Assembly (NCBI GenBank): GCA_013151235.1
Contig: JAADIO010000028.1
Coordinates: 1 to 38,646, forward strand
DNA length: 38,646 nucleotides
From: Deltaproteobacteria bacterium
Lineage (GTDB): Bacteria > CG2-30-53-67
Reading direction: 5' to 3'
In this document: positions 11,933 to 38,646 of the stretch, piece after piece
Layout: every line of letters starts with the position of its first letter
Numbering within the stretch: the first letter of the stretch is position 1
The notes under the pieces: generated by a model
Seen by the model: only the letters and a program-made list of their open reading frames with translations
Databases searched by the model: none
Told to the model about the DNA's origin: nothing
Program-made: the position numbers and the translations under genes

Positions 11933-11971
11933 GTTTATCTGTTTTGCCTCCCTGGACAGAATTCTTTGCCG

Positions 11972-17783: not shown

Positions 17784-18038
17784 TCAAACAGATACTTTCC
17801 GGCGTCTCTTTTCAAATTTGTTCAGGCTGTCTATGAGACAACCGATGACATCCGAGGCGACCGCTATAATTTGCGGATCCGAGCATCCAGCCCTCTTCAA
17901 CGCCCTGAAGAATGCCGTCGCAACACACTTGGAAAACGTCTCCGGATCATTCAACGCCTTGACGATCTTTTCTTCCAGAATCATTCCGCCCCTCACGGAT
18001 TGTGGGGATCCCTCATTTTGCATTCCATTTGTAACCAT
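17784..18038 (-). CDS. Small helical hypothetical protein (84 aa)
   Basis: AAGGAAG RBS before ATG 18038. Fills the gap between two co-directional genes. Amphipathic pattern ATAFFRALKRAG.SDPQIIAVASDVIG. Confidence 0.6.
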   Translation of the reverse strand: MVTNGMQNEGSPQSVRGGMILEEKIVKALNDPETFSKCVATAFFRALKRAGCSDPQIIAVASDVIGCLIDSLNKFEKRRRKVSV

Positions 18039-19550: not shown

Positions 19551-21047
19551 TCAATGCCTATGATCGGTCGCCGGCGGGACCTGCACCGCACGACTGGGAA
19601 GGTTCCGCTCCCCGTCCTTGTTTGCAGAACCCCAGCCTCCGCCCATCGACTTGTAGCACTCGACGAACGCTATAAACAGAGCCTTCTTCGTCTTTATGTT
19701 CGCTATCTCGGTGCTGTACAGGTTCCGCTCGGCATCCAGAACATCAATATAGCTGACATACTGGGCATCGTATCGTTCCCGGGCGAAATGCAGGTAGTCC
19801 TTCAACGCCTTTATGTGGCGTTCCTGGATTTTCAATTTCTCCTGCAGTTTTCGGATCTTAAACAGGGAATCGTTCACTTCCTGCAGTGCCGTCTGAATGG
19901 TGCGCAAATATTCGTTGAGCAGTTCCACACGCTGCGCCTCCGCACGCTGGATATCTCCCTTAATCCGCCCGGCGGAAAAGATCGGACCTGCCACATCGAG
20001 GCCTGCGGACCAATAGTTCGCCGTATCCCTTAAAAATTCCGACAGCGCCGTACTGGCATATCCGAACAGCCCGGTAAGGGAGATCTCCGGATAATATTCA
20101 TCACGCACGACATCTATCATGGCATCGGCTGCAACCAGATTTTCTTCACTCATTCGTATGTCCGGGCGCCGCTCAAGCAGATCAGCGGGGAGCCCCTGTG
20201 GAATTTCAGGCATGATCGACATACCGATTCCCTTCCCTCTGCGGATTTTACCCGGATTACGTCCCAGCAAAACCGATAACGCATCCTCCTGCAGCGCTAT
20301 CTGCAGTTCAATGTCCGGAACGGTCTCCGCAACACTTTCAAACGCGGAACGTACTTGGGCCAGTTCCATATCCGAGACCTGCCCCCCACGGAATTTGTCT
20401 TCAAAAAGCCGCAAAAATTCCTCCCTTGACGCATAGGTCCGGCGGGCCGTATCCAACATACGATCCAGCGACAACAAACTCATGTAGCCTTCAGCCACAT
20501 CGGCGGTAAGAGTAAGGATCACAGCATCCCGTGCATACTCCGAAGCAAGAAGGTCCGCCCGTGCTGCTTCGCGTTTCTTGCGCAGTCGTCCCCATATATC
20601 CACTTCCCAGTTCACAGCGGCCTGGAACCTGTATGAAGACTGGCGCCGATCGGGGCCGAGGCTCAGAGACGGAATGTTCCGTTCCAAGCTCTGTTGTTCG
20701 CGCCCGGCTCCAATACCGTAGTCCAGACTCGGATAGAGAGCGGACTGAACGGACTGAAAACGCCCGGCGAACTCCTGCACCCTGGCGGTTGCGATGCGTA
20801 CGTCCTTATTTTTTTTGAGAGCAACATCTATGAGGTTGTTCAGCACCGGGTCATGGAACAGTTCCCACCAACGGACATTAGCTACCCCGGCCGCCACCGG
20901 ATACGCGATGCACCATTGCCGGGGCATCTTGACCTCAGGCCTTTTATAGACCCGCCCGGCCGTACACGCAGCACACAATACGACAAGCGTACAGACAATC
21001 AACAGACGTAGGACCGTCTTCTTTCCCTTCAGCGCGCTCGACCGCAT
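19551..21047 (-). CDS. Efflux outer-membrane factor lipoprotein (NodT/OprM family)
   Basis: Lipobox CAAC, WWELFHDPVLNNLI, WEVDIWGRLR, LPADLLERRPDI, YIDVLDAER and YKSMGGGW. Confidence 0.92.
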   Translation of the reverse strand: MRSSALKGKKTVLRLLIVCTLVVLCAACTAGRVYKRPEVKMPRQWCIAYPVAAGVANVRWWELFHDPVLNNLIDVALKKNKDVRIATARVQEFAGRFQSVQSALYPSLDYGIGAGREQQSLERNIPSLSLGPDRRQSSYRFQAAVNWEVDIWGRLRKKREAARADLLASEYARDAVILTLTADVAEGYMSLLSLDRMLDTARRTYASREEFLRLFEDKFRGGQVSDMELAQVRSAFESVAETVPDIELQIALQEDALSVLLGRNPGKIRRGKGIGMSIMPEIPQGLPADLLERRPDIRMSEENLVAADAMIDVVRDEYYPEISLTGLFGYASTALSEFLRDTANYWSAGLDVAGPIFSAGRIKGDIQRAEAQRVELLNEYLRTIQTALQEVNDSLFKIRKLQEKLKIQERHIKALKDYLHFARERYDAQYVSYIDVLDAERNLYSTEIANIKTKKALFIAFVECYKSMGGGWGSANKDGERNLPSRAVQVPPATDHRH

Positions 21048-21112
21048 CTCTCGTGATCCTTCAATCCGTTCCATTAACATGACATTTCGCACCGTACCAC
21101 CACCGGCAACGC

Positions 21113-22033
21113 TCACGGTTTTCCCACCGGCTTGGAGAACCGGGATACAAACTCCCATATAAACCTGCTTGTCGATACATCTCCGCCATCCGGCGACACG
21201 ATCTTTTCGGGCCAGCCGTGCCCCTCTCCCAGCACCAGGTATAGTTCAACCGGGGCGCCATCGCTGCATCTGTATTTCGTCTCTCTTGCACGTCCCCGCA
21301 CCGTACGCTCCACGGGGGGCGAACAGGACCGGGAGCGCGTCAACAGCCTCATGGTCTCCGGGACGGATCTGTGCCTGACCCCGGACTTACTGTGGGTCCC
21401 TTCCCCACCATTGAACGGTACGTTCTGATCCCGCTCGCCGTGTATATGGAGCACCGGTATGCCCCTGGCCGCATCACAGTTGTCGACCGCCAGGGTGCCT
21501 GCGACGGAGACAACCGCAGCTATCTCGTCCGGAATCTCGCAGGCAAGGCGATAGGCCATCATGGCTCCATTTGAAATCCCGGCGACATACACCCTGCGCC
21601 TGTCGATCGGATACCGGCCGGCGATCTTGCTGATAACCTCCTTTATGAAACGCACATCGTCCACCTGCTGCCTTACAGCACGGCCGCAACAACTCCCGGC
21701 ATTCCATACCCTCCTGTTCCTGTTAAAACTGAACCGCCCACCGGTACCGTTAGGATAGGCCACGATAAAGTGACCGGCATCGGCCACGGCATCCATACCC
21801 GCTATCTTTTCCATATGATTTGCATTGCCGGTCCCACCGTGCAGAACCAGCATCAACGGGACCTTGCCACCGCCAGGCAGAGACGGGCTGTAGAGAATAT
21901 AGCTACGCGCCTGTCCATCGACGACTATGGTGTGCAACCTGGACTGTCCGCATGCGGAAGAACTTCCCATGTTCACCCCCACCAAAAAGAGCGTGCACAA
22001 AAAGATGACTCGGATGACTCGAAAACAGATCAT
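21113..22033 (-). CDS. LpqC/PHB-depolymerase-like secreted esterase
   Basis: GGAGG RBS before ATG 22033, signal peptide, LVLHGG, WNAGSCCG, DDVRFI, GISNGAMMAYRLACE, HGERD and GHGWP. Confidence 0.88.
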   Translation of the reverse strand: MICFRVIRVIFLCTLFLVGVNMGSSSACGQSRLHTIVVDGQARSYILYSPSLPGGGKVPLMLVLHGGTGNANHMEKIAGMDAVADAGHFIVAYPNGTGGRFSFNRNRRVWNAGSCCGRAVRQQVDDVRFIKEVISKIAGRYPIDRRRVYVAGISNGAMMAYRLACEIPDEIAAVVSVAGTLAVDNCDAARGIPVLHIHGERDQNVPFNGGEGTHSKSGVRHRSVPETMRLLTRSRSCSPPVERTVRGRARETKYRCSDGAPVELYLVLGEGHGWPEKIVSPDGGDVSTSRFIWEFVSRFSKPVGKP

Positions 22034-22082
22034 GTTGCCTCCCTTGTCACATGCCGGAACCAACGCCCGGTGCCTACCCGAT

Positions 22083-22721
22083 TCATTCGCTTTCTCCGTC
22101 CAGCAGTTCCGCGGCACCCGCCTCGAACTCCTTCAATTGAGCAAGATTGTTATAAAGTTCGGTCACGATAGCCTCCAGCCACTTTATCTGCGCCTCTATG
22201 TTTTTCCTCTCTGACAGGATCTCTTCAATAGAGACGTGCTCGGGTGGCCTTCCCTGATGGTCGAAGAGAAAGCGAATCCCCTCGCCGATCTGCCTTTTGG
22301 CATTTATATACTCTACCTGCTCCGAGATAAAGGTCTTCGCCTTATTCGACTTGAAATGGCGTATGGCCATCTCCCGAAGTGCCTGTTGCTGCGTGTTCAA
22401 GCCGGCCGGAGCAACCTCGGCGCTCTTGGGTTCGGTATCGACAAGGCCTATTTTTTGCCTCTCTCCCGGCACGAAGAACTGGACAACCCTTCCGTCGTCC
22501 GCACGTACAAGAAGCGCCCATTTCACATCCCGGGCGTGTTCGTTCATCTCCTCCTTGAATATGCCGGCATCGGCATAGGTCTGGTAGAAGCAATACTCCT
22601 TCCGGTGCATCACAAACCCCACGAACTCATCCTGCTGGGAGCACGTGGGCACTTCGGCCCCCGGGGCTGTCTCTTTAGCGGACTTCCCGCTCTCGTCGTC
22701 TCTGTAATTCGCAGAATTCAT
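22083..22721 (-). CDS. Hypothetical protein with C-terminal coiled coil
   Basis: ATG 22721 after AGGTGG, co-directional in the operon. Heptad-like C-terminus (IEAQIKWLEAIVTELYNNLAQLKEFE). Start uncertain. Confidence 0.6.
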   Translation of the reverse strand: MNSANYRDDESGKSAKETAPGAEVPTCSQQDEFVGFVMHRKEYCFYQTYADAGIFKEEMNEHARDVKWALLVRADDGRVVQFFVPGERQKIGLVDTEPKSAEVAPAGLNTQQQALREMAIRHFKSNKAKTFISEQVEYINAKRQIGEGIRFLFDHQGRPPEHVSIEEILSERKNIEAQIKWLEAIVTELYNNLAQLKEFEAGAAELLDGESE

Positions 22722-22809
22722 TTTCCACCTAGAAAATTCATTCCCATACTCATCCCCCCCTCGACCAAATCCAACGCGGCAGCAAGCGACACGGTGCCCC
22801 ACCTTCCGT

Positions 22810-23718
22810 TCACGAATAACCGAATTCACACGCCAGCCGTACCACCTCGGGACGCAACCCTTTCCCGTCTCCGCGCCACGGCAACGATTCGTCGAGTGAA
22901 GGGATACGGGGCGTATGTGCCCTGAAGGCCGGACGACGAAGAAAATTCGGATCGTTGGCGAACAGTGCATTTATAGGTCCGAAGCCTGCAAATGGAGACC
23001 GTTCCGGATGCATCATGGAGTCCACGGCCTCCGCATCGTCACGGATCCCCAGCCAGTTGCAGATCCACTTGAGGTGTCTCTCCGGACTGCTCATGAAGGA
23101 TTCTCCTCGAATACGTATCCAACGCTCTGGAGCAACCTTGTCGAGAAAGTTCAGGATATTGACATTGATATCATGCCAGGCTATCTGCGGATCGACTGTG
23201 ACACTGTCACTCTCGAAGTCAAACGAGTTAACGAATAGCGCGAAGATACCGTTATTGAGATTCATGACCGACTTACCCTGCGGTATCGGGTGACGTACCA
23301 GATGGATAAATCTTGCACCGGGGAAGACTTGCAGGATCCTGTCCAGCCGTTCCATGGAGACCGTGTAGGCCGGACTCTTTTCCACCGGTATCAGGGGGTC
23401 CAGCCTGTCGACCAACTCACGATACACCTCACCGGTACAACGTTCCTCCCTTGCCGAGGCCCAGTGCAGCGCCATATGGATTGTGTCGCCGGTCTGTTCC
23501 CCGGCATATATCTCCGCAACAGCCCTGAGCAGGCCGTGCCTGCGGTTACTGTCTCCCCCGATTTCCTTGGATACCCGTCGCCAAAGGTCTTTCAGTTGCC
23601 GCACATTGAAAAGATTCAACTCTGGCAGACCGAACGCCTGAGGGTGTTGCCCAATCATGGCATTGATCACGGACGTATAGGAGCGCGGCGGCGCCATTAG
23701 AAAAAGCGGTTCAACCAT
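22810..23718 (-). CDS. Sulfotransferase, CurM/Ols ST-domain-like
   Basis: LFLMAPPRSYTS, GQHP..FGLPELNLF, VEKSPAY, FIHLVRHP and DPNFL. Starts right after the upstream stop. Confidence 0.85.
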   Translation of the reverse strand: MVEPLFLMAPPRSYTSVINAMIGQHPQAFGLPELNLFNVRQLKDLWRRVSKEIGGDSNRRHGLLRAVAEIYAGEQTGDTIHMALHWASAREERCTGEVYRELVDRLDPLIPVEKSPAYTVSMERLDRILQVFPGARFIHLVRHPIPQGKSVMNLNNGIFALFVNSFDFESDSVTVDPQIAWHDINVNILNFLDKVAPERWIRIRGESFMSSPERHLKWICNWLGIRDDAEAVDSMMHPERSPFAGFGPINALFANDPNFLRRPAFRAHTPRIPSLDESLPWRGDGKGLRPEVVRLACEFGYS

Positions 23719-23719
23719 A

Positions 23720-26569
23720 TCAAGGTACCCACGACCAGACTTCAACCTTAAAGAACCTGATCATCGCAAGCGACATAACCTTCCAAACCGGTTGCGGGCC
23801 GCATTCTATCTTCGCGTAACCCGTCATACCGGACTTAAGCAGACCGTCGCGGTTGTCCAGCAAGACCTGGACCTTTACAACATTACCCGAACTCTTCGGG
23901 GTCACCACGGAATCGATCTGCGTCACTTTCCCGTTGAAGATCTTATCGTAATATGTGAATGTCCTCCCGCGAACCGACGCGTCGGCAGCCGCATAGCCGA
24001 TATCCGGTTCGGGAACTTCGATCTCGGCCAGTACCTGCGAAGTGTTCTCTGCAATTCCGAACGGATCACCCTGCCCCAGATAATGCCCCTTCAGTTGCTT
24101 CAGGTTCATCCCGACCAGCTTGCCGTCGAAGGGCATACGTATAAAGGTCTGCTCCACTCTGGAGTTGTAGTAATCATATTTTTCCCGGTAGCTCTGCAAC
24201 TTTCCCTTTGCAGCCTCTATCTCGTCGGGAGTCGCTCCCGACTTCACCAACGCCAGTTTGGCGCGCAACTCTTCAACCTCCTTCGCATCCACCTCCTTCT
24301 CCTGTCTGGCGTCCTCCAATTCCTCCAGCGAGATCGTCTTTGTAACGTAAAGTCTTTCCATACGGGCCATTTTGTCACTGCTGAATTTGAGTTTGGTTTC
24401 CTGCACATTCAATTCACGCTCGACCAGTTGTAGCTCTTCCGGTCTCGGCTTGCTCATCAGCTCGTGAACAATCGCCTTCTGTTCATCTATCTTGGCCTTG
24501 TAAATCTGTAACTGCGAAGTATAGTCATCATCTGCCAGCTTGGCGACCACCGATCCCTTTTTCAGAAATTCACCGCCATCATAGTAGACATCCCTGATCA
24601 CTCCGGCGACCTCCGAAGTGATTTCCTGGCGCTGACTCGGCAGCACGACAAAACTCCCCGACGGCTCGTAATGGTAGGGCACTATCAGCAACACCAGCAG
24701 GGCGAACGGGGCCGAACGCATCAGATACTTGAAGACACCCCTTTTCTTGTCCGACCTTGCCACATCAATCGCTTCCTTATTGATGGAAACTTTCTTCCAC
24801 CGTTCGAATTGCAGAGACCGCTCATATACCTCGCTGATCTTTCTCGCCTTCGCTGCAAGACGAAAGAGCAACAAGACCACCAAGACTAGCGTTATAAAAA
24901 CCCCGGCGCCTCCGAAGTGGTATTTTACGTAACTGCCAAACATCAGGATAAAAACGACGAATGTCAGTATCATGAATAGCGCAGAGGCCAGTGCATACGC
25001 CACAAGCACATTCCGATCGAGTTTTCCATACCGATTGCCCTTCAGCTTGTTTACAATGGACAGCGCCGCCTTGGAACGCAAATTGTCCTCGTTGAGCCAG
25101 GCGACCATAAGATAATAGCCGCTGCTCTTCACCAGCGGATTGGCCGAGAGGTAGAGTGAAGCTACCGCTATTACCGCCAAAGTGAGGGAAAAGGACGCAA
25201 TCAGCGGGGTGGTCGGTCTTGATACGAACCAGGCCAGTATGCAAAGAGCGATCAGCGAGAAACGCCCCAGAAGAGGCGCTGCGTGAAACCATATACGCTC
25301 CCGCCGGAAAAGCCGCTCCCAGTTCCTTACCCTGACATGGAAGCGGGGATAAAAACCGAAATGAAGCTCTATGAAAAATGAATCTACCGGCAGGTTGTAG
25401 GAATAGGCAACAATGGCGATCAGAAAGGTTGCCAGAAGATTGTCCGTAAACATGCCTATCATGGTGTGGGCAAAGTAGGTAAAATGGACATAACGTATGC
25501 CAATCATGAACCGGGCGAAATCCTCCTTCATCATGTCCGCATGGCGGTAGGCCACAACAAACGCCGTAATAAAGAGGGGCGGAAGCAGGTAGACAACGTG
25601 CCGCAAGGGCCTACAGACCGGCAACACTGCCTTCAGGAAAGGCGCTGGATGGAATAGATGCCATCCCCTTTTTTCCGAACGATCGTCCCCGGTATGCCGG
25701 GGAGCCAGACGGGGATAGGCCTCCTCTATTATCAACCTGTTCAATATCTTCAATGCTCTTTTTTCACGATCCCCCAAGTCCCGTGACGACCTGCTGCGAA
25801 AAGACGAGGTTTCATCCATCAGACGTACGATCTCGTCCGTCAGGTGCAAGGACGGCTTCTTGGACAGGACCTGTTCGGAAAGATCGGGGATCTTAAGTAC
25901 ATCGTTGAGCCATTCAACACTGTTTTCGTGCGCTCCGGCTTCGTGCAGATCATAACCGTCGTTCCGTACGGCTGCACAAAGGTCTACGAGATCGGATGGA
26001 CGCCGGAATTCACGGGAAGTAAAATCAGCTTGGTCGGAGACGAGCCCCTTTATGCGGGTTGACTCCGGGCCGACCCCCTTCTCCTCCTTCTCAGAGGCAG
26101 CGCCGGAATCCCGACCGTCCCCGGCCATACCGACATCGGCCGCGCCGCGTGCAATTGCATCGATATCCCCGGCGTCGTGTGCCTCCGCACGTACCCCGGT
26201 ATCGGATGGACCCGTAAGACGGATAGGCTGATTATCCACCTTACGCCGGTAGGCGGCACACAAAGGGTGAGCCTCGGCATCAAGACCCAGGATCTTCATT
26301 TCGTCCAGAAGGGCAAACAGCTTTTCTAACTCCTCCATAGTGATGCCGTGACCGAACCGGTCCTCGAAGACGGAAGCCAACTTATCAAAGTTATCGCACA
26401 GCGGCATGACTTCGAGAACAAAGAACTGCCACGGCTCCAACTGATAGGTAAGCCCTTTCCAGTTGTCCTGTATCCTGTATTTCCAATCTCCGTCCACTGT
26501 CTCCCTGAAGGCAATCAGGCCCTGCCTCAATAAGGGGGGGAGTGCGACACGCTGAGAATTCGGAATCAA
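23720..26569 (-). CDS. PqqD/RRE-like + degenerate M50-peptidase-like membrane domain + HlyD-family membrane-fusion protein
   Basis: TTG start with AGGAGG. Multiple TM helices with AAPL and SANPL..SSGYY. C-terminal lipoyl-half/coiled-coil/IRMPFDG and LLKSGMTGYAKI..G. Confidence 0.8.
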   Translation of the reverse strand: MIPNSQRVALPPLLRQGLIAFRETVDGDWKYRIQDNWKGLTYQLEPWQFFVLEVMPLCDNFDKLASVFEDRFGHGITMEELEKLFALLDEMKILGLDAEAHPLCAAYRRKVDNQPIRLTGPSDTGVRAEAHDAGDIDAIARGAADVGMAGDGRDSGAASEKEEKGVGPESTRIKGLVSDQADFTSREFRRPSDLVDLCAAVRNDGYDLHEAGAHENSVEWLNDVLKIPDLSEQVLSKKPSLHLTDEIVRLMDETSSFRSRSSRDLGDREKRALKILNRLIIEEAYPRLAPRHTGDDRSEKRGWHLFHPAPFLKAVLPVCRPLRHVVYLLPPLFITAFVVAYRHADMMKEDFARFMIGIRYVHFTYFAHTMIGMFTDNLLATFLIAIVAYSYNLPVDSFFIELHFGFYPRFHVRVRNWERLFRRERIWFHAAPLLGRFSLIALCILAWFVSRPTTPLIASFSLTLAVIAVASLYLSANPLVKSSGYYLMVAWLNEDNLRSKAALSIVNKLKGNRYGKLDRNVLVAYALASALFMILTFVVFILMFGSYVKYHFGGAGVFITLVLVVLLLFRLAAKARKISEVYERSLQFERWKKVSINKEAIDVARSDKKRGVFKYLMRSAPFALLVLLIVPYHYEPSGSFVVLPSQRQEITSEVAGVIRDVYYDGGEFLKKGSVVAKLADDDYTSQLQIYKAKIDEQKAIVHELMSKPRPEELQLVERELNVQETKLKFSSDKMARMERLYVTKTISLEELEDARQEKEVDAKEVEELRAKLALVKSGATPDEIEAAKGKLQSYREKYDYYNSRVEQTFIRMPFDGKLVGMNLKQLKGHYLGQGDPFGIAENTSQVLAEIEVPEPDIGYAAADASVRGRTFTYYDKIFNGKVTQIDSVVTPKSSGNVVKVQVLLDNRDGLLKSGMTGYAKIECGPQPVWKVMSLAMIRFFKVEVWSWVP

Positions 26570-26599
26570 TTAAATAACCTCCTGATAATGGAACGGGAC

Positions 26600-28048
26600 T
26601 TAGAAAAACCCGTCCGGAGCAAAAAATATTTCACACCCTCCGCGCGGATTATGTACATACCGGTCTCCATCCAGGGGGAGAACACGCGGCCCGAAGGGAT
26701 TGGCCGTACCGAGGAAAAGCCCATATGGACTCGAGGACATGGTTCGCAGACCTATGTTATAGGGATTCCCCATGCCGTCTGTGGTTACCGGAACCCAGTT
26801 TTCCCCGTCAATGCTTCTGTAAAGATCAAACCCGGCCTGGTTTTCAAGTATGAACTCTTCGCCTACATTATTTACGATATTTATAAACGCCTCGGGCCAC
26901 GAATCCCTCTTCGCATAGCCAAGGAGACAGCTCCAATCGAAGGTTGAAAGATAGAGCCATCCTTTGTATTCGCACATACGCCAGAAATAGCCGTTGAAAA
27001 AGTTGTCGAAACCCGGCAGATACCCCGAAAGCGGGGTCTTGCGCCCAACCGGGGTAGTGCGCTCCTCGCCGACAATCAATTCCCAATATCCGTCCGGGTA
27101 TATTCGTATCAATTCCGGCGCCGCGGGACCAACCTTGTGCTTTCGGTCTATGCCTCCCCCCTGTATGCCGCTCCCCACGTAGAGCACGCCCTTGAAAGGA
27201 TACATACTCAGTGCGACCTGATTCTTCGGACCGCGGAATGCTCCACGATCCATCACCTTTTCCCACTTGTATGGAGGCTCACCCATTCCGTCGGTACGCC
27301 AGACTTGGTATCCATCCAGATTCAAAGTCCCCGCGTACAGATGGTCGCCCAGCCCGGCCATTTCGAAGACCGTCTGGTTGCCGGGGTCTCCGAACCCACG
27401 TTCACTCACCGGCTGCCAGCCTCCGGAGAGTGGATCACGGCTTTCATAAATAACCGAGTGCCCCGACACATTGGGATTCCCTCCACGTGAACCGGCAGCA
27501 GTGGTAAAAAGACGTCCCCTGAACTCAGTAAGAGACCGTATGGTGGTAACGGGCAGTCCAATCAGTCCCGGTTCGCACACCGCCTCGAAGTGCACCCCGT
27601 CTTCGCTTCGGAGCAGTAGGGGCCCCGGCCCCTTGGCCGGCGACCAAGTGCTGACGTAAAGGGCATCCTCGTACCGCCCCGGATCCCTGTAAGTGATCAT
27701 ACCGCGGTAGCCGAGTTCCCTGGGAATAGGCTTTCCATGGCTGCCTCGTATTATTGGGGATTTGAAGACACGCTCCCACTCGGCCTCGACCGGATCATAA
27801 CGCCATATCTCGGCACCCAGGTCCAGATCGAAGGGATCCTCCGGGCAGGGGACCGGCCAAGGGTCGAGTCCTATAGGCAACCTGGCTTTCATCAAGGGGA
27901 AATTCCCGCGAGTTGTGGCCACATACAGATGGTCCCTGAACCAGGCCATCGAGTGCGCGTAATTGTTCAAACCGTGGCCGAACCCCTCCCTGGCCACAAG
28001 GTGGAAATCTTTACTGCTGAATCCCGGATAAATACCCAGCTTGTTCAT
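26600..28048 (-). CDS. Hypothetical repeat (probable beta-propeller) protein
   Basis: Repeated units GFG..N....M..F.D.LY.GT / F.G.LY.G / Y.G.LY.ST. ATG overlaps the upstream stop (TAATG). Confidence 0.7.
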   Translation of the reverse strand: MNKLGIYPGFSSKDFHLVAREGFGHGLNNYAHSMAWFRDHLYVATTRGNFPLMKARLPIGLDPWPVPCPEDPFDLDLGAEIWRYDPVEAEWERVFKSPIIRGSHGKPIPRELGYRGMITYRDPGRYEDALYVSTWSPAKGPGPLLLRSEDGVHFEAVCEPGLIGLPVTTIRSLTEFRGRLFTTAAGSRGGNPNVSGHSVIYESRDPLSGGWQPVSERGFGDPGNQTVFEMAGLGDHLYAGTLNLDGYQVWRTDGMGEPPYKWEKVMDRGAFRGPKNQVALSMYPFKGVLYVGSGIQGGGIDRKHKVGPAAPELIRIYPDGYWELIVGEERTTPVGRKTPLSGYLPGFDNFFNGYFWRMCEYKGWLYLSTFDWSCLLGYAKRDSWPEAFINIVNNVGEEFILENQAGFDLYRSIDGENWVPVTTDGMGNPYNIGLRTMSSSPYGLFLGTANPFGPRVLPLDGDRYVHNPRGGCEIFFAPDGFF

Positions 28049-29133: not shown

Positions 29134-29136
29134 ATG

Positions 29137-30735: not shown

Positions 30736-30747
30736 TGGTCCATCCTT

Positions 30748-31032
30748 TCAGATACCCTTGTCCACCAGGAATGAGGCAACCCGGCCGACAGATAGATCGG
30801 ACACATAACTGCCGTCCTTCATAAGGAGGTCCTGGAATCCAAACTTGCGCTTGAAATGCTCTTCAATGGCCACGCACAACTGTATGATATCGACTGAGGC
30901 GAAATCCAGGTCCTTCACAAGTAGAGTCTTCCCCGTGACAGTATCTTCCAGGTCCAGCCCCCAGTCCTGTATCAGGTCCATAACAATCTCTATGACCACC
31001 TTCTCAGCATCCGACTTCCGATTTACAGGCAT
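30748..31032 (-). CDS. Stand-alone acyl carrier protein
   Basis: 94 aa, acidic, DLDFASVDIIQL phosphopantetheine motif, AIEEHF. Directly downstream of the PKS. Confidence 0.85.
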   Translation of the reverse strand: MPVNRKSDAEKVVIEIVMDLIQDWGLDLEDTVTGKTLLVKDLDFASVDIIQLCVAIEEHFKRKFGFQDLLMKDGSYVSDLSVGRVASFLVDKGI

Positions 31033-31050
31033 CCCTTAACTCCCACTCTC

Positions 31051-34000
31051 TTAATTCTGATGATCCGCAGCAATCGCGATAATACTTCGGTCCACCTCTT
31101 CCAGGCGTACCCCCACCACAGTGCCGTTCCGCGCCACAAGCGCAAGACCCCAACCGTTATCCGTGAATGATACCTCGAAGTCCTCCGGTCTTCCTTGCAG
31201 TCCCGACCCGAGATATTTCGCCGCCGCCTCCTTTGCACACCATATTCGTATAACCTTTTCACGCATCTCTTTCGAGCTGTGTCCAAGCGATTCACGCTCC
31301 TGCGGCGTCATGGCCGATTCCAGCAAATCGGTGCGCACCGCCCGTTCCAAGGACTCCACATCCACACCAACACCCAGCCCCGGCTCCGCCACCGCCGCTA
31401 CGCACAAGCCATGATCATGGCTGAGAGATACCGGCGGAGCAGGCGATACAACATCGCGCCATATGCCGTCCACGAACGGAGCGCCAGCGTCCTCGTGCCT
31501 GACCCTTATATCCGCCGGAAACAACAGCTTACCGCTCTTTTCGTAAACCCAATGGCGCACCGCCTCCTTTATGCATGCACGCCCCAGCAACCATTGGATC
31601 CGATACGAAAGCCCCCCCTCGAGGAGACGCCACTCCCTGCGCTCCTCCTCACCCAGGACGGCGCACGCCAATATCCTAAGGAAGATCCCGCTCGATTGAC
31701 GGCAGAAGTCCTCAGCCAAGTGAGGCAGGATCCAAACCAGGACCCCGGGAGCCCCGAGCATCTCCTTCACGCTGCCGAGACACCCTTTATGCGGGTTCAT
31801 CCGCACATTGAAGAACCGCTCCGGGACCGGATAAAAAACGTTAATAAGGTTTTCGACCTTGAGGATCGTTCTCCCCACACTGTCCACACACTCGAAATCC
31901 CATCTCTTGGGAGCATCTACATCACCGGGCAACAATCCCAACGGTTTGTGGCGGCCCTTCATCTTCAACCCCGACTGATCCTTGGGATGTGGTTGCCGGA
32001 TTTCGATACGCCCTATGGTTGCGGGGAAACAATTGAAACTCGTGCCAATCTTATGTGCTATCCAGTAAGCGGACAACTGCCCCACGGCATCGAGCAATAC
32101 CGGATTCAAGACCATTTCCGCGGTTTCATCGTCACGGAAAAATCCTCGCAGGGAAACAGGGGAGAGAAACGCATCCATTCCCTCTTCGTTCCACCCTTCG
32201 ATTTCCTGAATGCTCCGGAAGACGGGTCCGTGAAACATTCCTACACGGTAAAGGTCCCTTCCATCCCACCGCGGAGGGTGTACACTCTCCAGCTCCGCCA
32301 GCATCCCGGATATCTCCACATCTCCCCAGAGGAAATCGGCCGAAACAGCCTTCTTCCCCTCAATCAATGCAACGGCATGACATCTGTCGGGATCTCCCGG
32401 AGACGATTCGACCTGTATGGTAAGAACTGCTTTTCCTTCGTCCAATGCAATCCAATCGAATGCCCTGACATTTTCGATCGCAGAAACGGCCCGGTCTCCC
32501 CGAAACAGGACGGCCGCCTCGGCCAGGATCTCAAGTGTCACCATCAGCGGGACACAGGCCAGACCTGTAAGACAGGGATCAAAATCCGATACCGGTCCGG
32601 AGAGGACGTGATCCCGCAGAAAATTGTTCTCCGCAACGGACAGGGCGCACTCGGCAACCAGGTGTTCATCATCACATTCAACTATGGAATCGATAAACGG
32701 CGTATATAAATCCTCTGCAGAGGGGGCATGCCTGCCGGCATCATCCGGAAAGGCGTACCGTTCAACGATCCTTTGCTGCTGATCCAGGAAATCAGACATC
32801 AGGTCGAAGTGCCTCTTCATAACCCCGTCCAGGTCGTCCGCCTCATCGCCGGGAAGCATGTGATACCGTTCCGACGACGAGGCCCGCGGTACGGCGCAAA
32901 CAGTCCCCGGCAATCGTGACTCGGCACCCGACTCAACAATACTTTCCAGCTCATCCTTGTCATCTTTATCCAGGTGGATCACAGGCATGGTATTGTCCAA
33001 GCGCATGGTAGGCCGGCAAACCGCTGCAGCCCCCCCTATTTCAGCGATCCGGACATCGCGCGAAACGAACATACGCTCCAGCTTCACCCCCATGTCGTTT
33101 ACATAAAGAGTGCCGAGAGAGACAAGGAACTGTTCCAGACAGTTCTTCCGTTTCAGGTTCGTGGCCAGGGCCATGTACTCACGACCGGCCAGTATATCCT
33201 TGACGAAGGAGGCCAGGTTGCCTGACGGACCTACTTCCAGGAAGTACCGCACCCCCTCTTCGTACATCTTCAGTACGGTCTCGCGGAAACGGACCTTACT
33301 GGCCCATTGTCCGGCCGCAAGGGAGCGTACCCCTTCAGGATCGTCCGGAAAACAATCCACCGACACACAGGAATAGAGTGGTGTACGCGGGGCTCCCAAC
33401 CCTATCTTTTCGTAATAGGCAAGAAAGGCCCGACTGACCGCTGCGAATTGCGGCGTATGATATCCACGGTCGAACGGGAGGAGGGCGCAGAGCCCTCCCT
33501 TGGCGGTCAACCCCTTCCTGAGACGCTCGATACTCTCCGGCGGACCGAAAAGAACGAGCTGATTACGGCAATTCTCCATCGCCACGACCACCTCTTCGCC
33601 GAAAGGAACCATCTCTTTTTCTATCTCGGATCGCTCCAGAGCGCCCACAGTCATCAGGGCGCCTTTTGCAATACTCCCCTCCTCCAAAACTCTGAGATAG
33701 ACCTGGTTCAACTCACGCACGAAGTCAGCCAATTGCGAGCGGTCATCATACCGAATCGCCCCGGAGGCAACCAGCGCGGAAGACTCACCGGTGCTGTGCC
33801 CAACCATCACGTCCGGCACGACCCCGAAACGATCCAGGATCGCGTACATGGCCTGGCCTGCGACAAAAACCGATTCGGAACCTATATCCATCGTGTATAG
33901 CAACTCCTCCAGTTTCGCACGCCGTTCTTCGGTAAGTTCCGACGCCGGGGGGAGGAGGATATCGGTGCGGGTCTCCCCCTGCGTCTCGTTGTAGAGTCCT

Positions 34001-35829
34001 TTCCAGAAATCGAACCACTCGCGTACTTCATCAAAACAGATCATAAGCTCCGAGAACATGCCGAGATATTGAGACCCTTCGCCCGGGAAGAGAAACGCCA
34101 GCTTGCCGTCAAGGGGACGGCAACTGTAGACGATGCCGCTTCGGGTAGACCAGCGGTCGCGCACCGTATCTTTCCGTAACCTCTTCAAGGCATGTTCAAT
34201 CTTCTTCAAGCAGTCGTCACGGCTCTTTGCCACCAGTGCCAGCCGATCGGGGGCGGCGACAGACGTGGAAGCCAGCGTAGCGGCTACATCACACAACGCA
34301 AGATCCGGATTACCGGCGATCCACCCCGCCGTATGTTCCAGAATGTTCATCAATCCCATTCTGTCCGGCGCAGAGAACACGCATAACTCAAACGGCCACC
34401 CGGAACAGTCACGGGGCCGTCGCGCCCCTTCGGGCGCCTCCTCCAGTATGGCATGGCTGTTGATCCCTCCGAACCCGAAGGAATCAACACCCGCCATACG
34501 CTGTATCCCCGGGACAGAGATCCAGGGTTTGGGTTCCGTATTCACATAGAAGGGCGTACTCTCCATCCCCAACTTACCCGAAACCCGTTCACATCGCGTG
34601 GGGGGGAGGACCTTGTGATGAAGCGCCAGTGCACTCTTTATCAATCCTGCGATTCCCGCTGCAGGAATACAGTGGCTGATCATGGATTTTACGGAACCCA
34701 GGGCGACCGATCCCTGCAACCCCTTCCGCTCTCCGAAAACCCGTTTCAAGGCCGATATCTCCGTCCGGTCTCCAAGCGGAATTCCCGTCCCATGTGCTTC
34801 AATAAGTTCAACAGAAGCAGGATCAACACCGCTCTCGTCGTAGGCCCTGCTGATCGCAAGAGACTCCCCTTCCAGGCTTGGTGCCAACACCCCGTGCCCC
34901 CGCCCGTCGCTGGACAGACCCACCCCCCGGATTACCGCATAGACGCGATCCCGATCGGTGATTGCGTCGTGCAGCCGTTTGAGTACTACAACCCCCAGAC
35001 CTTCACCGAGAAGTGTCCCGTCACTCTTCTCGTCAAAGGGGAGAACCTCTCCCCGCTCACTAAGCGCCCCCAGCAGCGTGAATATTACCGAGACTTCGGC
35101 AGGTATGGATGCATTGACCCCTCCGGCCAGCATCAAGCGGCAACGCCTGTTTCGCAATTCATCCATGGCGGCGCTGACGGCTATGAGCGATGAAGAACAT
35201 GCCGCGTCCACGATATAATTGGGGCCCTTGAAATTCAACCTGTTAGCGATACGACCCGTCATGGCATTCGGTACAAGGGATGCAGCTATATCCGCGTTGA
35301 ACTGCGGCAGCTTGCTTTCCAGCAGGCCCCTAATTCGAGACAGCTTGTCCTCCGCCAGCGAGGGTATCATCCCCCTGAGGATCTCGATCGTCTGGTCGAT
35401 AACAATGTTGTGCTGTATAAGATTTCCCTGCCCTCGGTGGAGGTAGGTGCTGTGACCGAGTATGATCCCGGAATCCTCATGATCGTACTCCGCATTCAGG
35501 TAGCCGGCATCATCGAGGGCGTCACGGGCACTCTTCAGGGCAAGAAACTGGTCCGGCTCCCCACCGTCCACGGAATTGGGCATAATACCGAACTCCTTGG
35601 GGTCGAAACGATAAAGATCCCCGAGAAAACCGCCGTAAGGAGTCTGTATCCTACCGGAAGAGAGATAGCGATCAGCCTCCCATTCCACTGGAGGCTTGCC
35701 TACCGCATTGACGCCCGCGAGGATATTCCTCCAATATGTTTTCAGGTCCGGAGCGGAAGGGAACATGCACGCCATCCCGATTATGGCTATAGGCTCCGAC
35801 CTGTCCCGATCGTTCTTTCTAAGATTCAA
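31051..35829 (-). CDS. Type I PKS/PUFA-synthase-like protein KS-AT-DH-PPTase
   Basis: KS: IAIIGMAC, DAACSSS, HGTG, KSMISH, SFGFGG.N.H. AT: FPGEGSQ, GHSTG, GYHT. DH: FLRDHVLSG..P, FHGP, PVLLDA. Sfp-type PPTase: SLSH, GVDVE, WCAKEA. TTG start after AAGGGG (alternative GTG 35853). Confidence 0.92.
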   Translation of the reverse strand: MNLRKNDRDRSEPIAIIGMACMFPSAPDLKTYWRNILAGVNAVGKPPVEWEADRYLSSGRIQTPYGGFLGDLYRFDPKEFGIMPNSVDGGEPDQFLALKSARDALDDAGYLNAEYDHEDSGIILGHSTYLHRGQGNLIQHNIVIDQTIEILRGMIPSLAEDKLSRIRGLLESKLPQFNADIAASLVPNAMTGRIANRLNFKGPNYIVDAACSSSLIAVSAAMDELRNRRCRLMLAGGVNASIPAEVSVIFTLLGALSERGEVLPFDEKSDGTLLGEGLGVVVLKRLHDAITDRDRVYAVIRGVGLSSDGRGHGVLAPSLEGESLAISRAYDESGVDPASVELIEAHGTGIPLGDRTEISALKRVFGERKGLQGSVALGSVKSMISHCIPAAGIAGLIKSALALHHKVLPPTRCERVSGKLGMESTPFYVNTEPKPWISVPGIQRMAGVDSFGFGGINSHAILEEAPEGARRPRDCSGWPFELCVFSAPDRMGLMNILEHTAGWIAGNPDLALCDVAATLASTSVAAPDRLALVAKSRDDCLKKIEHALKRLRKDTVRDRWSTRSGIVYSCRPLDGKLAFLFPGEGSQYLGMFSELMICFDEVREWFDFWKGLYNETQGETRTDILLPPASELTEERRAKLEELLYTMDIGSESVFVAGQAMYAILDRFGVVPDVMVGHSTGESSALVASGAIRYDDRSQLADFVRELNQVYLRVLEEGSIAKGALMTVGALERSEIEKEMVPFGEEVVVAMENCRNQLVLFGPPESIERLRKGLTAKGGLCALLPFDRGYHTPQFAAVSRAFLAYYEKIGLGAPRTPLYSCVSVDCFPDDPEGVRSLAAGQWASKVRFRETVLKMYEEGVRYFLEVGPSGNLASFVKDILAGREYMALATNLKRKNCLEQFLVSLGTLYVNDMGVKLERMFVSRDVRIAEIGGAAAVCRPTMRLDNTMPVIHLDKDDKDELESIVESGAESRLPGTVCAVPRASSSERYHMLPGDEADDLDGVMKRHFDLMSDFLDQQQRIVERYAFPDDAGRHAPSAEDLYTPFIDSIVECDDEHLVAECALSVAENNFLRDHVLSGPVSDFDPCLTGLACVPLMVTLEILAEAAVLFRGDRAVSAIENVRAFDWIALDEGKAVLTIQVESSPGDPDRCHAVALIEGKKAVSADFLWGDVEISGMLAELESVHPPRWDGRDLYRVGMFHGPVFRSIQEIEGWNEEGMDAFLSPVSLRGFFRDDETAEMVLNPVLLDAVGQLSAYWIAHKIGTSFNCFPATIGRIEIRQPHPKDQSGLKMKGRHKPLGLLPGDVDAPKRWDFECVDSVGRTILKVENLINVFYPVPERFFNVRMNPHKGCLGSVKEMLGAPGVLVWILPHLAEDFCRQSSGIFLRILACAVLGEEERREWRLLEGGLSYRIQWLLGRACIKEAVRHWVYEKSGKLLFPADIRVRHEDAGAPFVDGIWRDVVSPAPPVSLSHDHGLCVAAVAEPGLGVGVDVESLERAVRTDLLESAMTPQERESLGHSSKEMREKVIRIWCAKEAAAKYLGSGLQGRPEDFEVSFTDNGWGLALVARNGTVVGVRLEEVDRSIIAIAADHQN

Positions 35830-35872
35830 ACTGTGTCCCCTTCTCACGTACACCCATGGACGGCAACCAGGG

Positions 35873-38646
35873 TCAACATTCCGCTCTCCCCCGTCCCGCC
35901 TTACTGCCCAGCCGGTTCAACTCCGCATTGGAGACGCACTCCATGTCGTCTATGGTCAAAACGATATCGCCGTTCGTATCGTAGAAACAGACATCAGCGC
36001 ACACAAGGTGGCTTTCTTCTACGCGCGTCCTTTCAAAACGCATGAAGAGTTTCTCCGGACAGGAATCAACATACCGGATGATTTTCCCGAACCTCGCGGG
36101 AAGGGCCGTCTCGTCCCGGAACTTTCGTGCCCATATGATAGCCATCTGGGCGGCCGCGTCGATCAGCGCCGGATCGTAACACCATAGGTTATCGTCACGA
36201 GTGGCACATCGCAGCCAGTACGACGGCTTCGACGATCTCAGCAACGATAGTGAACCTTCGGGCGTAATCTCCATGATCTCTTCGATCACCCGCAACAGCG
36301 GACCGTGGAACAACCAGTTGTCGTATGCCTCTTTAACCGAAAGCCCCTCGCCCCGGAACAACTTGGGAGCGAACGAAGGACGGGCGGGCAGTTCGTCCAC
36401 CAACAATATCCTGGCGCGGTAAGCTGCACGTTCCTTGACGAGATCGTCGATCAGCAGCCGGACCTCAACCTCAGATCCGTCTCCGTTCATTTCGGCAACT
36501 GGGCCGATACGAACATACACCTTGCGCTCACCTCCCTCGAAGCGTATACCGTGCAGCATCCTGCACTCTTCCACACGAAGAATTGTACGGCCGCGCCCGG
36601 CATGAATGGCAGCCTCCGACATAATCTCCAGCGCAGCCGCCATGGGAAGGACGGGAATGCCATCGATACAATGCTCCTGCAGATAGATATGATTCTTCTC
36701 CACATCCAACCGGAGAATCATATCCCCCCCGTCCCCATCCCTCTCCATGCAGCCATCCAACATGGGGCCGATGTAAGCCGAGGTATCAGCCTGGTATGAC
36801 TCGGTGGTTGCGCGCAGCTCTCTGTGCGCAGCCTCATGCGCCTCCCATCGCCCCTCGCCACAGACCACCTCGACATCCTGCCCGGCCGCAAGTAGTTCCT
36901 CCTTGAAGCACCTCCGTCCGGACTCCGCGCTCACCAGCCTGATCCCTCTCGCGGCAAATTTCTCTTCCGTGGCCGAGATTACCATTCCGGCTCCGAATTG
37001 CGTAGCCCCCCACGGCCCCCAGCACAAGGCCCTGACCTTCACCCCCGCTCCCCAAAGACCGCTCAACTGCCAGCAGATACGGTTCATAATCTCATTCGCC
37101 GTCGCGTAGTCAGTCTGACCGCTGTTGCCGTAACGTCCCGCCACAGAACTCATAACGACGAAGAATTTCAGTGACTCCGGATCGAGGTATTTCTGCAGCA
37201 ACATGAGTCCCATAACCTTTGTCTCAACGACTCGGGACCAACTATCGCCCGTCTTGTCCCTGAGCAATTTGTCCTCGATGATCCCGGCGCCGTGGATCAC
37301 GGCGTTTACCGAGCCATGCTCCCGTCGGATCTCTTCGAAGAGTCGACTCATCTCCCCTTCATCCATGACATCAACAGCGTAATAATGGACCGTTGCCCCC
37401 CTCCTTCTGAAATCATCCATGTTGTTTCGCATCTCCCTTTTCGCAAGTATCCCGCGGATCTTCCTTTCTATCTCGGCTGGCATAAGTTTCCGGCCGCCGG
37501 AGTGGGCATTGGAGATAAAATACCGCCGTAACTCGGCGGCGGTGGCCAGCGACGAAGTATCTTCCGGTTCTTCACCGGGCATGGGGCGGCGTCCCGTAAG
37601 GATCAAAACATTCCCGGGAAGGGCCAGATCACGGAGCAGTTCCGCGGTAATCCCTCTCCCCCCTCCCGTAGCCAAAACAACAAGATCACGCAGATCCCCT
37701 TCCGAGCCGGTAAGGTCAACCTCTTCCGGAACCGTTCTAAAGATCATCCGACTCCCATCTGCATACCCTATTTCCTGTCGTCCCCCCAAGTTTTCCATTT
37801 CGTTCAACAGGGCAGCGGCGACTTTATCTTCTCCGTCACCGGGGTCGAAATCCACCGCCTTCATGATAAACTGCGGCGCCTCGTCCAGGAAGGACTTGAG
37901 CAGTCCAACACCACCGCCCTGTATGGACAAGCCGTGGAGATCAGCGACCCCCGTGCGTCCGAACCCCCCTCCCATTGAGCTTGCAGAGATGAGGACCGCA
38001 CCGGGTTGCAGTCTTTCGTACAGATTCCGCAGGATTAGGAAAAAGGATTTCTCGTTGCGCAGCAACTCCATCCTCCACTCCTCCATGCCGGAGCGTGGAG
38101 AAATCCGTGCGGCAGACAGAGGAGCAAGATGGATCACACCATTTACACGTTCCGTATTTACAGCGAAGTCTATGCACCACTCGTTCAGTAATTCCTCACT
38201 CTCCAGGACAGAGCGCTGTACCACGTAAACCTTGCACCCCCTCTCCTCAAGAAGGTGTTTCAAAGAATCAGAGATACCGGAGATATCCTCCGTAAGCACG
38301 AAGAGGCCGCCTTCGATCGGCCGCATGACCGAGGGATCCAGTGCCTCTTCACAGGGGACCATGACATGCCGGAACGGAGGAATGTCGACAGCATCCTCTT
38401 CTTCCGTTCCGGCATAATCAAAAGGGACGGCAGGATCTCCCGTAACCGACAGGCTTTCAAGCTTCTTTATGATCCCCATGAGCGTTTGCTCTCTATTCAG
38501 CTCGGCGGTATCCCCCAACGCCTTTGCATACGATTCCGGAAGCCTCTTCATCAACTCCCCCACGATCTCCACCCTCTTGATCGAATCGATACCGAGATCC
38601 GCCTCCAGATCCTGATCCAGGCCGACCATCTCGCGGGGGTAGCCGG
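35873..38646 (-). CDS. PfaA-like type I PKS, C-terminal part ACP-KR-DH (5' partial)
   Basis: ACP GYPREMVGLDQDLEADLGIDSIKRVEI (PfaA signature). KR ATGGGRGIT, HGAG and GNSGQTDYATANE. DH YLQEHCIDGIPVLP, FHGP and DPALIDA. Confidence 0.92.
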   Translation of the reverse strand, partial: GYPREMVGLDQDLEADLGIDSIKRVEIVGELMKRLPESYAKALGDTAELNREQTLMGIIKKLESLSVTGDPAVPFDYAGTEEEDAVDIPPFRHVMVPCEEALDPSVMRPIEGGLFVLTEDISGISDSLKHLLEERGCKVYVVQRSVLESEELLNEWCIDFAVNTERVNGVIHLAPLSAARISPRSGMEEWRMELLRNEKSFFLILRNLYERLQPGAVLISASSMGGGFGRTGVADLHGLSIQGGGVGLLKSFLDEAPQFIMKAVDFDPGDGEDKVAAALLNEMENLGGRQEIGYADGSRMIFRTVPEEVDLTGSEGDLRDLVVLATGGGRGITAELLRDLALPGNVLILTGRRPMPGEEPEDTSSLATAAELRRYFISNAHSGGRKLMPAEIERKIRGILAKREMRNNMDDFRRRGATVHYYAVDVMDEGEMSRLFEEIRREHGSVNAVIHGAGIIEDKLLRDKTGDSWSRVVETKVMGLMLLQKYLDPESLKFFVVMSSVAGRYGNSGQTDYATANEIMNRICWQLSGLWGAGVKVRALCWGPWGATQFGAGMVISATEEKFAARGIRLVSAESGRRCFKEELLAAGQDVEVVCGEGRWEAHEAAHRELRATTESYQADTSAYIGPMLDGCMERDGDGGDMILRLDVEKNHIYLQEHCIDGIPVLPMAAALEIMSEAAIHAGRGRTILRVEECRMLHGIRFEGGERKVYVRIGPVAEMNGDGSEVEVRLLIDDLVKERAAYRARILLVDELPARPSFAPKLFRGEGLSVKEAYDNWLFHGPLLRVIEEIMEITPEGSLSLLRSSKPSYWLRCATRDDNLWCYDPALIDAAAQMAIIWARKFRDETALPARFGKIIRYVDSCPEKLFMRFERTRVEESHLVCADVCFYDTNGDIVLTIDDMECVSNAELNRLGSKAGRGRAEC

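Follow-up and report, generated by a model that had tools for sequence, protein, structure and literature searches.

In the heterocyst glycolipid pathway, an HglE-type, Pfa-like polyketide synthase (PKS) makes a long-chain hydroxy lipid, which is derivatised and exported to the surface via DevBCA-HgdD. The gene cluster that we analyze here has a sulfotransferase (ST) instead of glycosylation, with no glycosyltransferase and without the ABC parts DevC and DevA. It lies on the minus strand of a contig of 38,646 nucleotides (nt) from a Deltaproteobacteria bacterium (JAADIO010000028.1, assembly GCA_013151235.1; genome of 2.62 Mb in 73 contigs). We call this whole contig, C45 in our numbering, the window. 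We give a probability of roughly 0.55 to the reading that the cluster makes an undescribed polyketide lipid, sulfated at and exported by a transporter-less conduit of adaptor and outer-membrane factor (OMF), and that it is one horizontally mobile system of two parts. By undescribed we mean that our literature searches returned no description of this cluster or of its product, in agreement with an earlier annotation of the window (the original prediction), which knew of no characterised product. Below we list the genes from the PKS end, with the PKS domains abbreviated as acyl carrier protein (ACP), ketosynthase (KS), acyltransferase (AT), ketoreductase (KR), dehydratase (DH), enoyl reductase (ER) as well as phosphopantetheinyl transferase (PPTase), and with lengths in amino acids (aa).

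35873..38646, minus strand: C-terminal part of PksA (end of the ACP, KR, PS-type DH), open at its 5′ end; from Pfam.
31051..35853, minus strand: PksB, with domains KS-AT-DH-PPTase; from Pfam and NCBIfam.
30748..31032, minus strand: free ACP-like protein, 94 aa; weak NCBIfam ACP matches (E 5e-5).
29137..30735, minus strand: cytoplasmic enzyme of the AlkP superfamily (NPP/Phosphodiest); PF01663, 1e-42.
28048..29133, minus strand: cytoplasmic serine alpha/beta hydrolase with a C-terminal DUF6316; from Pfam.
26600..28048, minus strand: cytoplasmic beta-propeller, 482 aa; from an AlphaFold model and Foldseek, without a Pfam or NCBIfam family.
23720..26569, minus strand: inner-membrane pseudo-M50/HlyD adaptor, 949 aa; Pfam HlyD_D23 and HlyD_3.
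22810..23718, minus strand: ST1, a cytoplasmic ST of the type using 3′-phosphoadenosine 5′-phosphosulfate (PAPS), in the family of CurM and olefin synthase (OLS); PF13469 (Sulfotransfer_3), 4.3e-23.
22083..22610, minus strand: small helical orphan, here called unk, with a conserved core of ~128 aa; without a Pfam or NCBIfam family.
21113..22033, minus strand: secreted or lipoprotein esterase of the polyhydroxybutyrate (PHB)-depolymerase family; PF10503 (Esterase_PHB) and NF050058.
19551..21047, minus strand: NodT-family OMF lipoprotein; TIGR01845, 330.5 bits against a cut-off of 210.
18065..19354, minus strand: secreted BNR-like propeller; weak BNR_2 match and an N-terminal hydrophobic segment.
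16376..17626, minus strand: secreted TolB/PD40-like propeller; Atlas lead TolB/PD40 at 0.91, without a family match.

The first eleven are the open reading frames (ORFs), all on the minus strand, that fill 19551-38646; every gene of the predicted run was found, and its parts were assigned by Pfam and NCBIfam. The observation behind the original prediction is thus confirmed, and its interpretation holds for the most part, with several details to be corrected. With the likeliest starts, the junctions from PksA onward measure 19, 18, 12, 3, -1 (a TAATG overlap), 30 and 1 nt, so that these first seven are tightly coupled, at 30 nt or less, but the later ones are of 199, 49, 65, 196 and 438 nt.

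The synthase shares with PfaABCDE the KS-AT-ACP-KR order, the LGIDSIKRVE motif of the ACP, an ER of the FabK family and a PPTase within the cluster, and PfaA is its best NCBIfam model. The PksA gene carries on at the end of contig C18. There, the terminal 69 nt are the exact reverse complement of the end of the window and are found on no other contig. Thus the upstream part that the original prediction had placed outside the window is now in hand: the N-terminal 1838 aa of PksA, consisting of an unassigned region (1-320), an ER of the nitronate monooxygenase (NMO)/FabK type, KS, AT and the start of an ACP. Simply joining C18 to C45 gives a protein of 2738 aa with the order ER-KS-AT-ACP-KR-DH. 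In the window part, Pfam finds the KR (2.6e-36), PS-DH, PKS_DH_N and a partial PP-binding domain. The ER matches PF03060 (1.4e-10) and a FabK model (6.8e-22), and the NCBIfam pfaD family model does not match it at E 0.001. The earlier statement that no PfaD is seen therefore has to be corrected, in that an ER of this kind is fused to the N-terminus of PksA, even if the pfaD model itself is unmatched. PksA has the motifs HGTGT, the active-site Cys of the KS, GHSYG/AFHS in the AT and, as predicted, LGIDSIKRVEI in the ACP. Since the gene is broken at the ACP, with the 69-nt contig overlap, PksA of this genome has one or more ACPs. PksB keeps its KS Cys, has GHSTG/YHT in the AT and WCAKEA in the PPTase, and has neither an ACP of its own nor a KR. 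The free ACP has the motif DFASVD and no Pfam match.

In other respects the cluster departs from PfaABCDE. PUFA (polyunsaturated fatty acid) synthases have tandem ACPs (4-9), but five of five complete or near-complete PksA orthologues have a single LGIDSI site. PfaA scores (TIGR02813), with the parts scored separately, are 793.4 bits for the C18 part, 250.8 for the window part and 515.8 for PksB, all under the cut-off of 1010.1. The cluster has no KS with chain-length factor (KS-CLF) of the PfaC type and no FabA-type DH: both KS domains have the active Cys and the DH domains are of the PS-DH type. The remaining KS matches in the genome are ORFs of FabF/FabB size, and there is no third PKS KS. 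The original prediction was thus right that this is not a canonical EPA/DHA cluster and that PfaC-type parts are missing; its PfaA-like PKS stands as Pfa-like, with the qualification that the orthologues have one ACP and that the ER is N-terminal. Matches to the KS-AT regions in the PDB (led by a trans-AT bimodule and CurL) are to generic PKS modules and do not place the synthase. Upstream of PksA, C18 encodes DnaK, Hsp20, a DnaJ-like protein, a MerR/HspR-like regulator, ClpB and a 259-aa EF-hand protein (4971-13661 of locus L001); with these heat-shock and EF-hand genes there, the cluster starts with the PKS.

Secondary lipid synthases have been sorted into types A to T (Shulse & Allen 2011, PMC3098273). 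Among the types described in the part of that text available, none has ER-KS-AT-ACP-KR-DH together with KS-AT-DH-PPTase; Type S (D. autotrophicum) is not worded there. The swf clusters of sponge symbionts, for which the authors predicted an alkyl sulfate, with the product unknown, also combine a mono-modular iterative PKS/fatty-acid synthase with a sulfotransferase (Della Sala et al. 2013, PMC3908369). As far as the available part of that paper goes, they differ from our cluster in that SwfA has the order KS-AT-DH-ER-KR-ACP, SwfB is a thioester reductase-ST fusion and a radical SAM (S-adenosylmethionine) gene is present; no second KS-AT-DH-PPTase, AlkP, propeller, adaptor or OMF appears there. 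Using Pfam, we found neither a thioester reductase nor a radical SAM gene in the window cluster. We conclude that the cluster is a new arrangement made of known kinds of parts, widely distributed and uncharacterised.

A scan covering one genome for each species gave 101 loci, of which 80 were kept and compared to the window proteins by tblastn. Full 10-kb flanks are available for 57 of the 80, and most of the remaining absences of core genes are contig ends. The loci are found in Burkholderiales, Pseudomonas, Neptuniibacter, Nitrosomonas, Xanthomonadales, Desulfobulbaceae, Syntrophales, Nitrospira, Thermodesulfovibrionales, Ca. Brocadia, Myxococcota and Verrucomicrobia, about six phyla by our own assignment. 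Cultured carriers include Rubrivivax gelatinosus DSM 1709, Ideonella and Neptuniibacter strains and Aquipseudomonas alcaligenes NBRC 14159. The conserved core consists of PksA, PksB, the ACP, AlkP, the hydrolase and the propeller. Among these genes, PksB is present in 67 loci (45-62% identical), the hydrolase in 72, AlkP in 55 and the ACP in 53; for export and tailoring, the adaptor is present in 45, the ST in 29, unk in 29, the OMF in 22 and the esterase in 15. The gene order of the window is found in 14 loci, and elsewhere the ST and export genes are ordered in other ways. Taken over the 80 loci, these comparisons indicate that the arrangement is kept far more than chance would allow.

We also looked at five genomes where no ST is found within the 10-kb flank (two Rubrivivax, A. 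alcaligenes, Nitrosomonas and Ideonella). All five have an ST1 orthologue (55-64%), and in three of them it lies directly upstream of PksA. In both Rubrivivax, ST-unk-OMF-adaptor comes first, two copies of the 16376-17815 gene and the gene of 18065-19354 follow, and PksA is last; A. alcaligenes has a divergent est-unk-ST upstream of PksA, and in Ideonella ST-unk-OMF-adaptor runs into PksA. The linkage is kept through at least four gene orders, and ST1 is 55-76% identical in every cluster-bearing genome tested. Co-occurrence of the tailoring and export genes with the PKS genes in other genomes, on which the original prediction depended, is therefore found both in the 80 loci and in these five recoveries. 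The two secreted propellers follow the cluster as well. Homologues of the 18065-19354 gene stand beside it in 8 of the 80 loci as well as in Rubrivivax, and those of the 16376-17626 gene in 9 of the 80 and in Rubrivivax (between exporter and PksA), often as two copies. Given this recurrence, the cluster extends past 19551 and both genes belong to it.

Neither the propeller nor ST1 is found in any of 250 other sampled Burkholderiales genomes; the propeller is absent from all 13 other genomes of the window's class, where PksB matches only FabF-sized genes, and a plasmid collection has no propeller homologue. Transfer is the best explanation for such a patchy distribution. Over 351 pairs from 27 loci, the divergence of the propeller correlates with that of ST1 (r 0.85, with kin that are not independent), which fits joint inheritance of the two.

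The evidence that ties sulfation to export comes from ST1, unk and the adaptor. In the PDB, the only sequence matches of ST1 are the STs of CurM (4gbm, 1.6e-19) and OLS (4gox, 2.9e-15), with aligned stretches PRSxxS, PELxL, (D/E)KSPxY and LVRHP. The genome has an adenosine 5′-phosphosulfate (APS) kinase domain and can therefore make PAPS. The unk gene comes after ST1 in 29 of 29 loci with an ST. Its family has 79 representatives among 1.84 billion proteins, none of them fused to a known domain. In a Verrucomicrobia locus (L040), the ST and two copies of unk share a single 588-aa frame. In two other loci (L019 and L023), the unk orthologues have an N-terminal module of ~110 aa that is 42-43% identical to adaptor residues 182-293 (E 4e-23 and 5.5e-20). 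The fusion and the shared module together tie ST1, unk and the cytoplasmic face of the exporter to one another, and from such gene fusions unk is likely a partner that docks ST1 to the exporter. As a separate observation, a small alkaline phosphatase (AP)-superfamily, sulfatase-like protein is encoded directly upstream of ST1 in 14 loci (L015:14097-14888 and L064:11966-13141 among them); it has a weak match to the STM4013 hydrolase family and is absent from the window's genome. It adds another enzyme of phosphatase/sulfatase type that is linked to the ST.

The AlphaFold2 (AF2) model of the adaptor, with a mean predicted local distance difference test (pLDDT) of 75, consists of an N-terminal sheet and three-helix domain, a disordered linker, a helical module, a membrane part and a periplasmic adaptor. 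By residue, these are a cytoplasmic beta3-alpha3 domain (~6-112), the shuffled helical module (182-293), a polytopic M50-like part (~300-630), modelled with about seven long membrane helices and an internal beta-hairpin, and the HlyD adaptor (640-949). The periplasmic part is similar to MacA/EmrA in Foldseek (E 1e-16) and matches HlyD_D23 (6.4e-12) and HlyD_3 (1.1e-10) in Pfam; NCBIfam RND_mfp scores 82, under its cut-off of 95, the DevB-family match is weak (1.3e-6, score 28 vs. a cut-off of 129), and a sequence search of the PDB gives no match. The original prediction called this protein M50-HlyD, and the M50 half of the name is not sustained: HExxH is present in none of 64 homologues, and Pfam M50 matches none of 14 members even at E 1. 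What is conserved in the alignment of that part are AHSYRAT-like and NPLIKSSGY-like stretches, and the part, which is no more than faintly M50-like, is best called a pseudo-protease-like membrane anchor. The cluster thus resembles MacAB-TolC and EmrAB-TolC in an adaptor that folds like MacA and EmrA and in a NodT channel above its curated cut-off, but it has no inner-membrane pump, and its adaptor is fused to M50-like and cytoplasmic domains linked to a sulfotransferase. Of the other exported proteins, the OMF has a lipobox-like N-terminus or signal peptide, and the esterase has a GISNG elbow, a signal sequence and a score of 163.6 bits for NF050058 (cut-off 150). Signal sequences are also predicted for both secreted propellers, and not for AlkP, the hydrolase, the 482-aa propeller, ST1 or unk.

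A natural exchange in the middle of the cluster bears on how the chain may be released. In 14 of the 80 loci, among them Neptuniibacter, Ideonella, Thermomonas and Ca. Thiodiazotropha, the hydrolase gene comes directly after PksB, and the ACP and AlkP genes are gone from that place. These variants encode instead an ACP-sulfotransferase didomain of 439-460 aa (ACP-ST2), the N-terminal domain of which is orthologous to the free ACP and matches PP-binding. Over its full length ST2 matches the CurM ST at 3.9e-59 and the OLS ST at 1.6e-57, and it is 25% identical to ST1. We searched whole genomes for both. Five of five variant genomes have the full didomain and ST1 and no AlkP orthologue, and five of five main-type genomes have AlkP (66-68%), the free ACP and ST1 and no didomain. 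AlkP and ACP-ST2 are thus perfectly complementary in these ten genomes, and the genome of the window belongs to the main type. From this exchange we infer equivalent tasks for AlkP and ST2 on an ACP-bound chain, and by homology that of ST2 would be the activation of a beta-hydroxyl for release. In the same genome as the window, another contig has a sulfotransferase-like ORF (C14:7157-7978) that is 26% identical to the Neptuniibacter ST2, with no PKS gene found beside it.

With these variants, the comparison to CurM and OLS can be made more exact. Both ST1 and, far more closely, ST2 are homologous to the ST domains of those proteins; in the variants an ACP precedes the ST in one protein, and an alpha/beta hydrolase is encoded nearby. 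On the other hand, in the window the ACP, ST1 and the hydrolase each have a gene of their own, seven kb lie between ST1 and the ACP, and even the variants fuse only the ACP and the ST. ST1 of the window sits with export genes, and AlkP is in the place of ST2. The ST1 family has PELNLF, with Asn at the position of the His in the PELHLL of CurM, OLS and ST2. And the synthase is an ER-containing, probably iterative PKS, as opposed to a modular line or a fatty-acid-loading module.

Concerning the remaining cytoplasmic proteins, AlkP is 61-69% identical in the 55 loci that have it. Looking for longer AlkP proteins with fused domains, we found no close fusion. A distant relative, P0189 (948 aa; 23% identical, E 5.7e-4), has an AlkP-superfamily domain, tetratricopeptide (TPR) repeats and sulfotransferase domains, which hints that AlkP-type and sulfotransferase domains may be combined elsewhere too. 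The hydrolase, with an AHSFG elbow and a C-terminal GH, is a candidate for the chain-releasing enzyme; among the best 60 of its 303 PDB relatives, generic esterases and lactonases are at the top and the CurM thioesterase (TE) does not appear. Hydrolase and propeller are paired, as their fusion in P0097 (860 aa) implies. The model of the 482-aa propeller (AF2 pLDDT 82, predicted template-modelling score (pTM) 0.88) has a beta-propeller fold, for which Foldseek finds generic Kelch, BNR and sortilin propellers only (TM-scores 0.31-0.49), and an Atlas search returns only its own unnamed clusters. The propeller has at least 1653 homologues; the 120 among the matches listed are 66-76% identical and come from many phyla. 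It is the signature protein of the cluster. In 38 loci the propeller is followed by an esterase of the hormone-sensitive lipase (HSL) type, which is not present in the window's genome.

In the reading that we favour, PksA would act as an iterative, fully reducing synthase building a long chain, PksB and the free ACP would be a terminal module, and the PPTase would activate the carriers. AlkP (or ST2), with the hydrolase/propeller pair, would process and release the ACP-bound chain. ST1, held by unk at the cytoplasmic face of the pseudo-M50/HlyD adaptor, would sulfate a hydroxyl of the lipid with PAPS, and the anionic product would exit via the MacA/EmrA-like adaptor and the NodT channel, to be acted upon by the secreted esterase and propellers in the periplasm or at the surface. 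As for the product, the most likely class is that of sulfated long-chain hydroxy lipids, perhaps carrying a terminal alkene. Several observations weigh against this picture. The only solved relatives of ST1 use sulfate as a leaving group and do not keep it. The free hydroxyl on the product is putative, and the roles given to AlkP and to the propeller are guesses. The fusion evidence consists of one locus for ST-unk and two loci for the module shuffle. The original prediction had synthesis, sulfation and envelope-spanning export encoded together, and genes for all three are there, but without an energy-coupled inner-membrane transporter: Pfam and NCBIfam find no ABC, RND or MFS pump and no ATPase domain in the ORFs of 16376-38646, which leaves the drive for export unexplained. 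Finally, lineages differ in the esterase, in the OMF and in a second esterase family, and the Pseudomonas loci show only the adaptor beside the core, with no OMF within 10 kb.

If sulfate is indeed only a leaving group, the cluster could be a dissociated olefin synthase, in which ST1 (in the variants, ST2) sulfonates a beta-hydroxyacyl-ACP and the hydrolase decarboxylates it with loss of the sulfate, giving a long-chain terminal alkene. CurM and OLS being the sole PDB relatives of ST1, the strength of the ACP-ST2 matches to both, a cytoplasmic serine hydrolase adjoining the carrier genes, and a PksB that lacks KR and ACP, as one would expect of a special terminal module, all speak for such chemistry. 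But all five variant genomes have ST1 besides ST2, at 25% identity, so the two probably have different jobs, and the fusions tie ST1 to the exporter and not to an ACP. The Asn of PELNLF, at a position that presumably matters, also argues against it, as do the generic esterase and lactonase relatives of the hydrolase, and an adaptor/OMF conduit and periplasmic esterases would hardly be required for a plain hydrocarbon. We rate the olefin synthase lower, as a possibility to be kept in mind but not a likely one, since ST1 occurs together with ST2 and is linked to the exporter. The two chemistries could also be combined, with AlkP as a non-orthologous stand-in for the ACP-linked ST of CurM type. 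The beta-hydroxyl would then, in the majority of clusters, be activated as a phospho- or nucleotidyl-ester in place of a sulfate ester, and the chain released with decarboxylation by the hydrolase and propeller; ST1, at the opening of the pump-less conduit, would sulfate the alkenol so formed, which would leave the cell as an anionic alkenyl-sulfate, a surface lipid or surfactant. This more specific proposal is speculative, and we consider it doubtful.

The adaptor suggests yet another product. Its N-terminal domain could be similar to the recognition elements (RREs) of ribosomal peptides and its M50-like part the relic of a peptide protease, in which case the PKS chain would be joined to a ribosomal peptide before export. 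In the AF2 model the N-terminus has strands 18-25, 28-35 and 40-44 followed by three helices, an order that we take to be the topology of PqqD-like domains; in an hhalign comparison with three PqqD sequences the helices are in register, but with a probability of just 19.6% (P 0.0012). JGI labels adaptor homologues 'putative peptide zinc metalloprotease', and there is a weak match to the NCBIfam daptide HExxH (intramembrane) protease (38 bits vs. a cut-off of 300, 1e-9), limited to the C-terminal part of that model. However, Pfam PqqD, like M50, matches none of the 14 members, and HExxH is missing from all 64 homologues. We see no conserved short ORF for a precursor, the only small conserved protein, unk, being fused to the ST in one lineage as an enzyme partner would be, and no condensation, GNAT or other ligating enzyme in the cluster. 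A lipidated peptide or protein is thus improbable. Even less credit can be given to two unrelated neighbours, a PKS lipid cluster next to a separate sulfotransferase/efflux island. It is true that the ST and export genes lie beyond the 10-kb flank in 28 of the 57 full-flank loci, that esterase and OMF are variable, and that a gap of 199 nt follows the ST gene, with larger gaps further on. But all five such genomes that we searched do have ST1, three of them directly upstream of PksA; ST1 and propeller are both missing from the 250 other Burkholderiales genomes; the linkage persists through at least four gene orders and six phyla; and the window's adaptor gene touches or overlaps those of both the propeller and the ST.

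As for the limits of the genes, several of the longest ORF frames are longer than the genes given above (propeller 26600-28180, ST 22810-23745, unk 22083-22970, esterase 21113-22117, OMF 19551-21158, TolB-like 16376-17815). The predicted start of the propeller is corrected to 28048 (482 aa), that of ST1 is probably at 23718, and the unk ORF is likely 22083-22610. A scan for promoters and terminators is at chance level (7 found vs. 8.1 expected; 16 vs. 9.6). Matching sequencing runs to the cluster gave no RNA run and one DNA run with 0.26 of the words. After the cluster, on the same strand, come genes at 13459-15150 for a secreted M4 protease of the thermolysin type and at 15202-16233 for an alpha/beta hydrolase that is lipoprotein-like; the latter has a 38%-identical homologue adjoining the cluster in one locus only (L060), and the protease has none in the loci. 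At the other end, positions 1-5820 of the window have a low GC content (41-48% vs. ~55% elsewhere) and contain polysaccharide genes, namely a Polysacc_synt_3 fragment, an unrelated second sulfotransferase (1006-1923) and a family 2 glycosyltransferase (GT2, 1944-2876), followed by an insertion sequence (IS) transposase (2975-4321), an ORF similar to ORC/CDC6 and a short one that is integrase-like (5227-5820). This region looks like a separate mobile island.

If our reading is true, there is a widespread and so far unnoticed route to an exported polyketide lipid that is sulfated (or sulfate-activated). Its carriers include nitrifiers, anammox bacteria, sulfate reducers, myxobacteria, Verrucomicrobia, common Burkholderiales and Pseudomonas, and the signature propeller alone accounts for more than 1600 sequence clusters at 90% identity. 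It would include three families to which no function is assigned, namely those of the propeller, of the ST partner and of the pseudo-M50 adaptor, and a biosynthetic sulfotransferase would be joined to an exporter through gene fusions. The natural exchange between a CurM-type ST and AlkP points to a new chemistry of chain release. Importantly, several of the carriers are cultured type strains, so that the question of what the product is can be tested directly.

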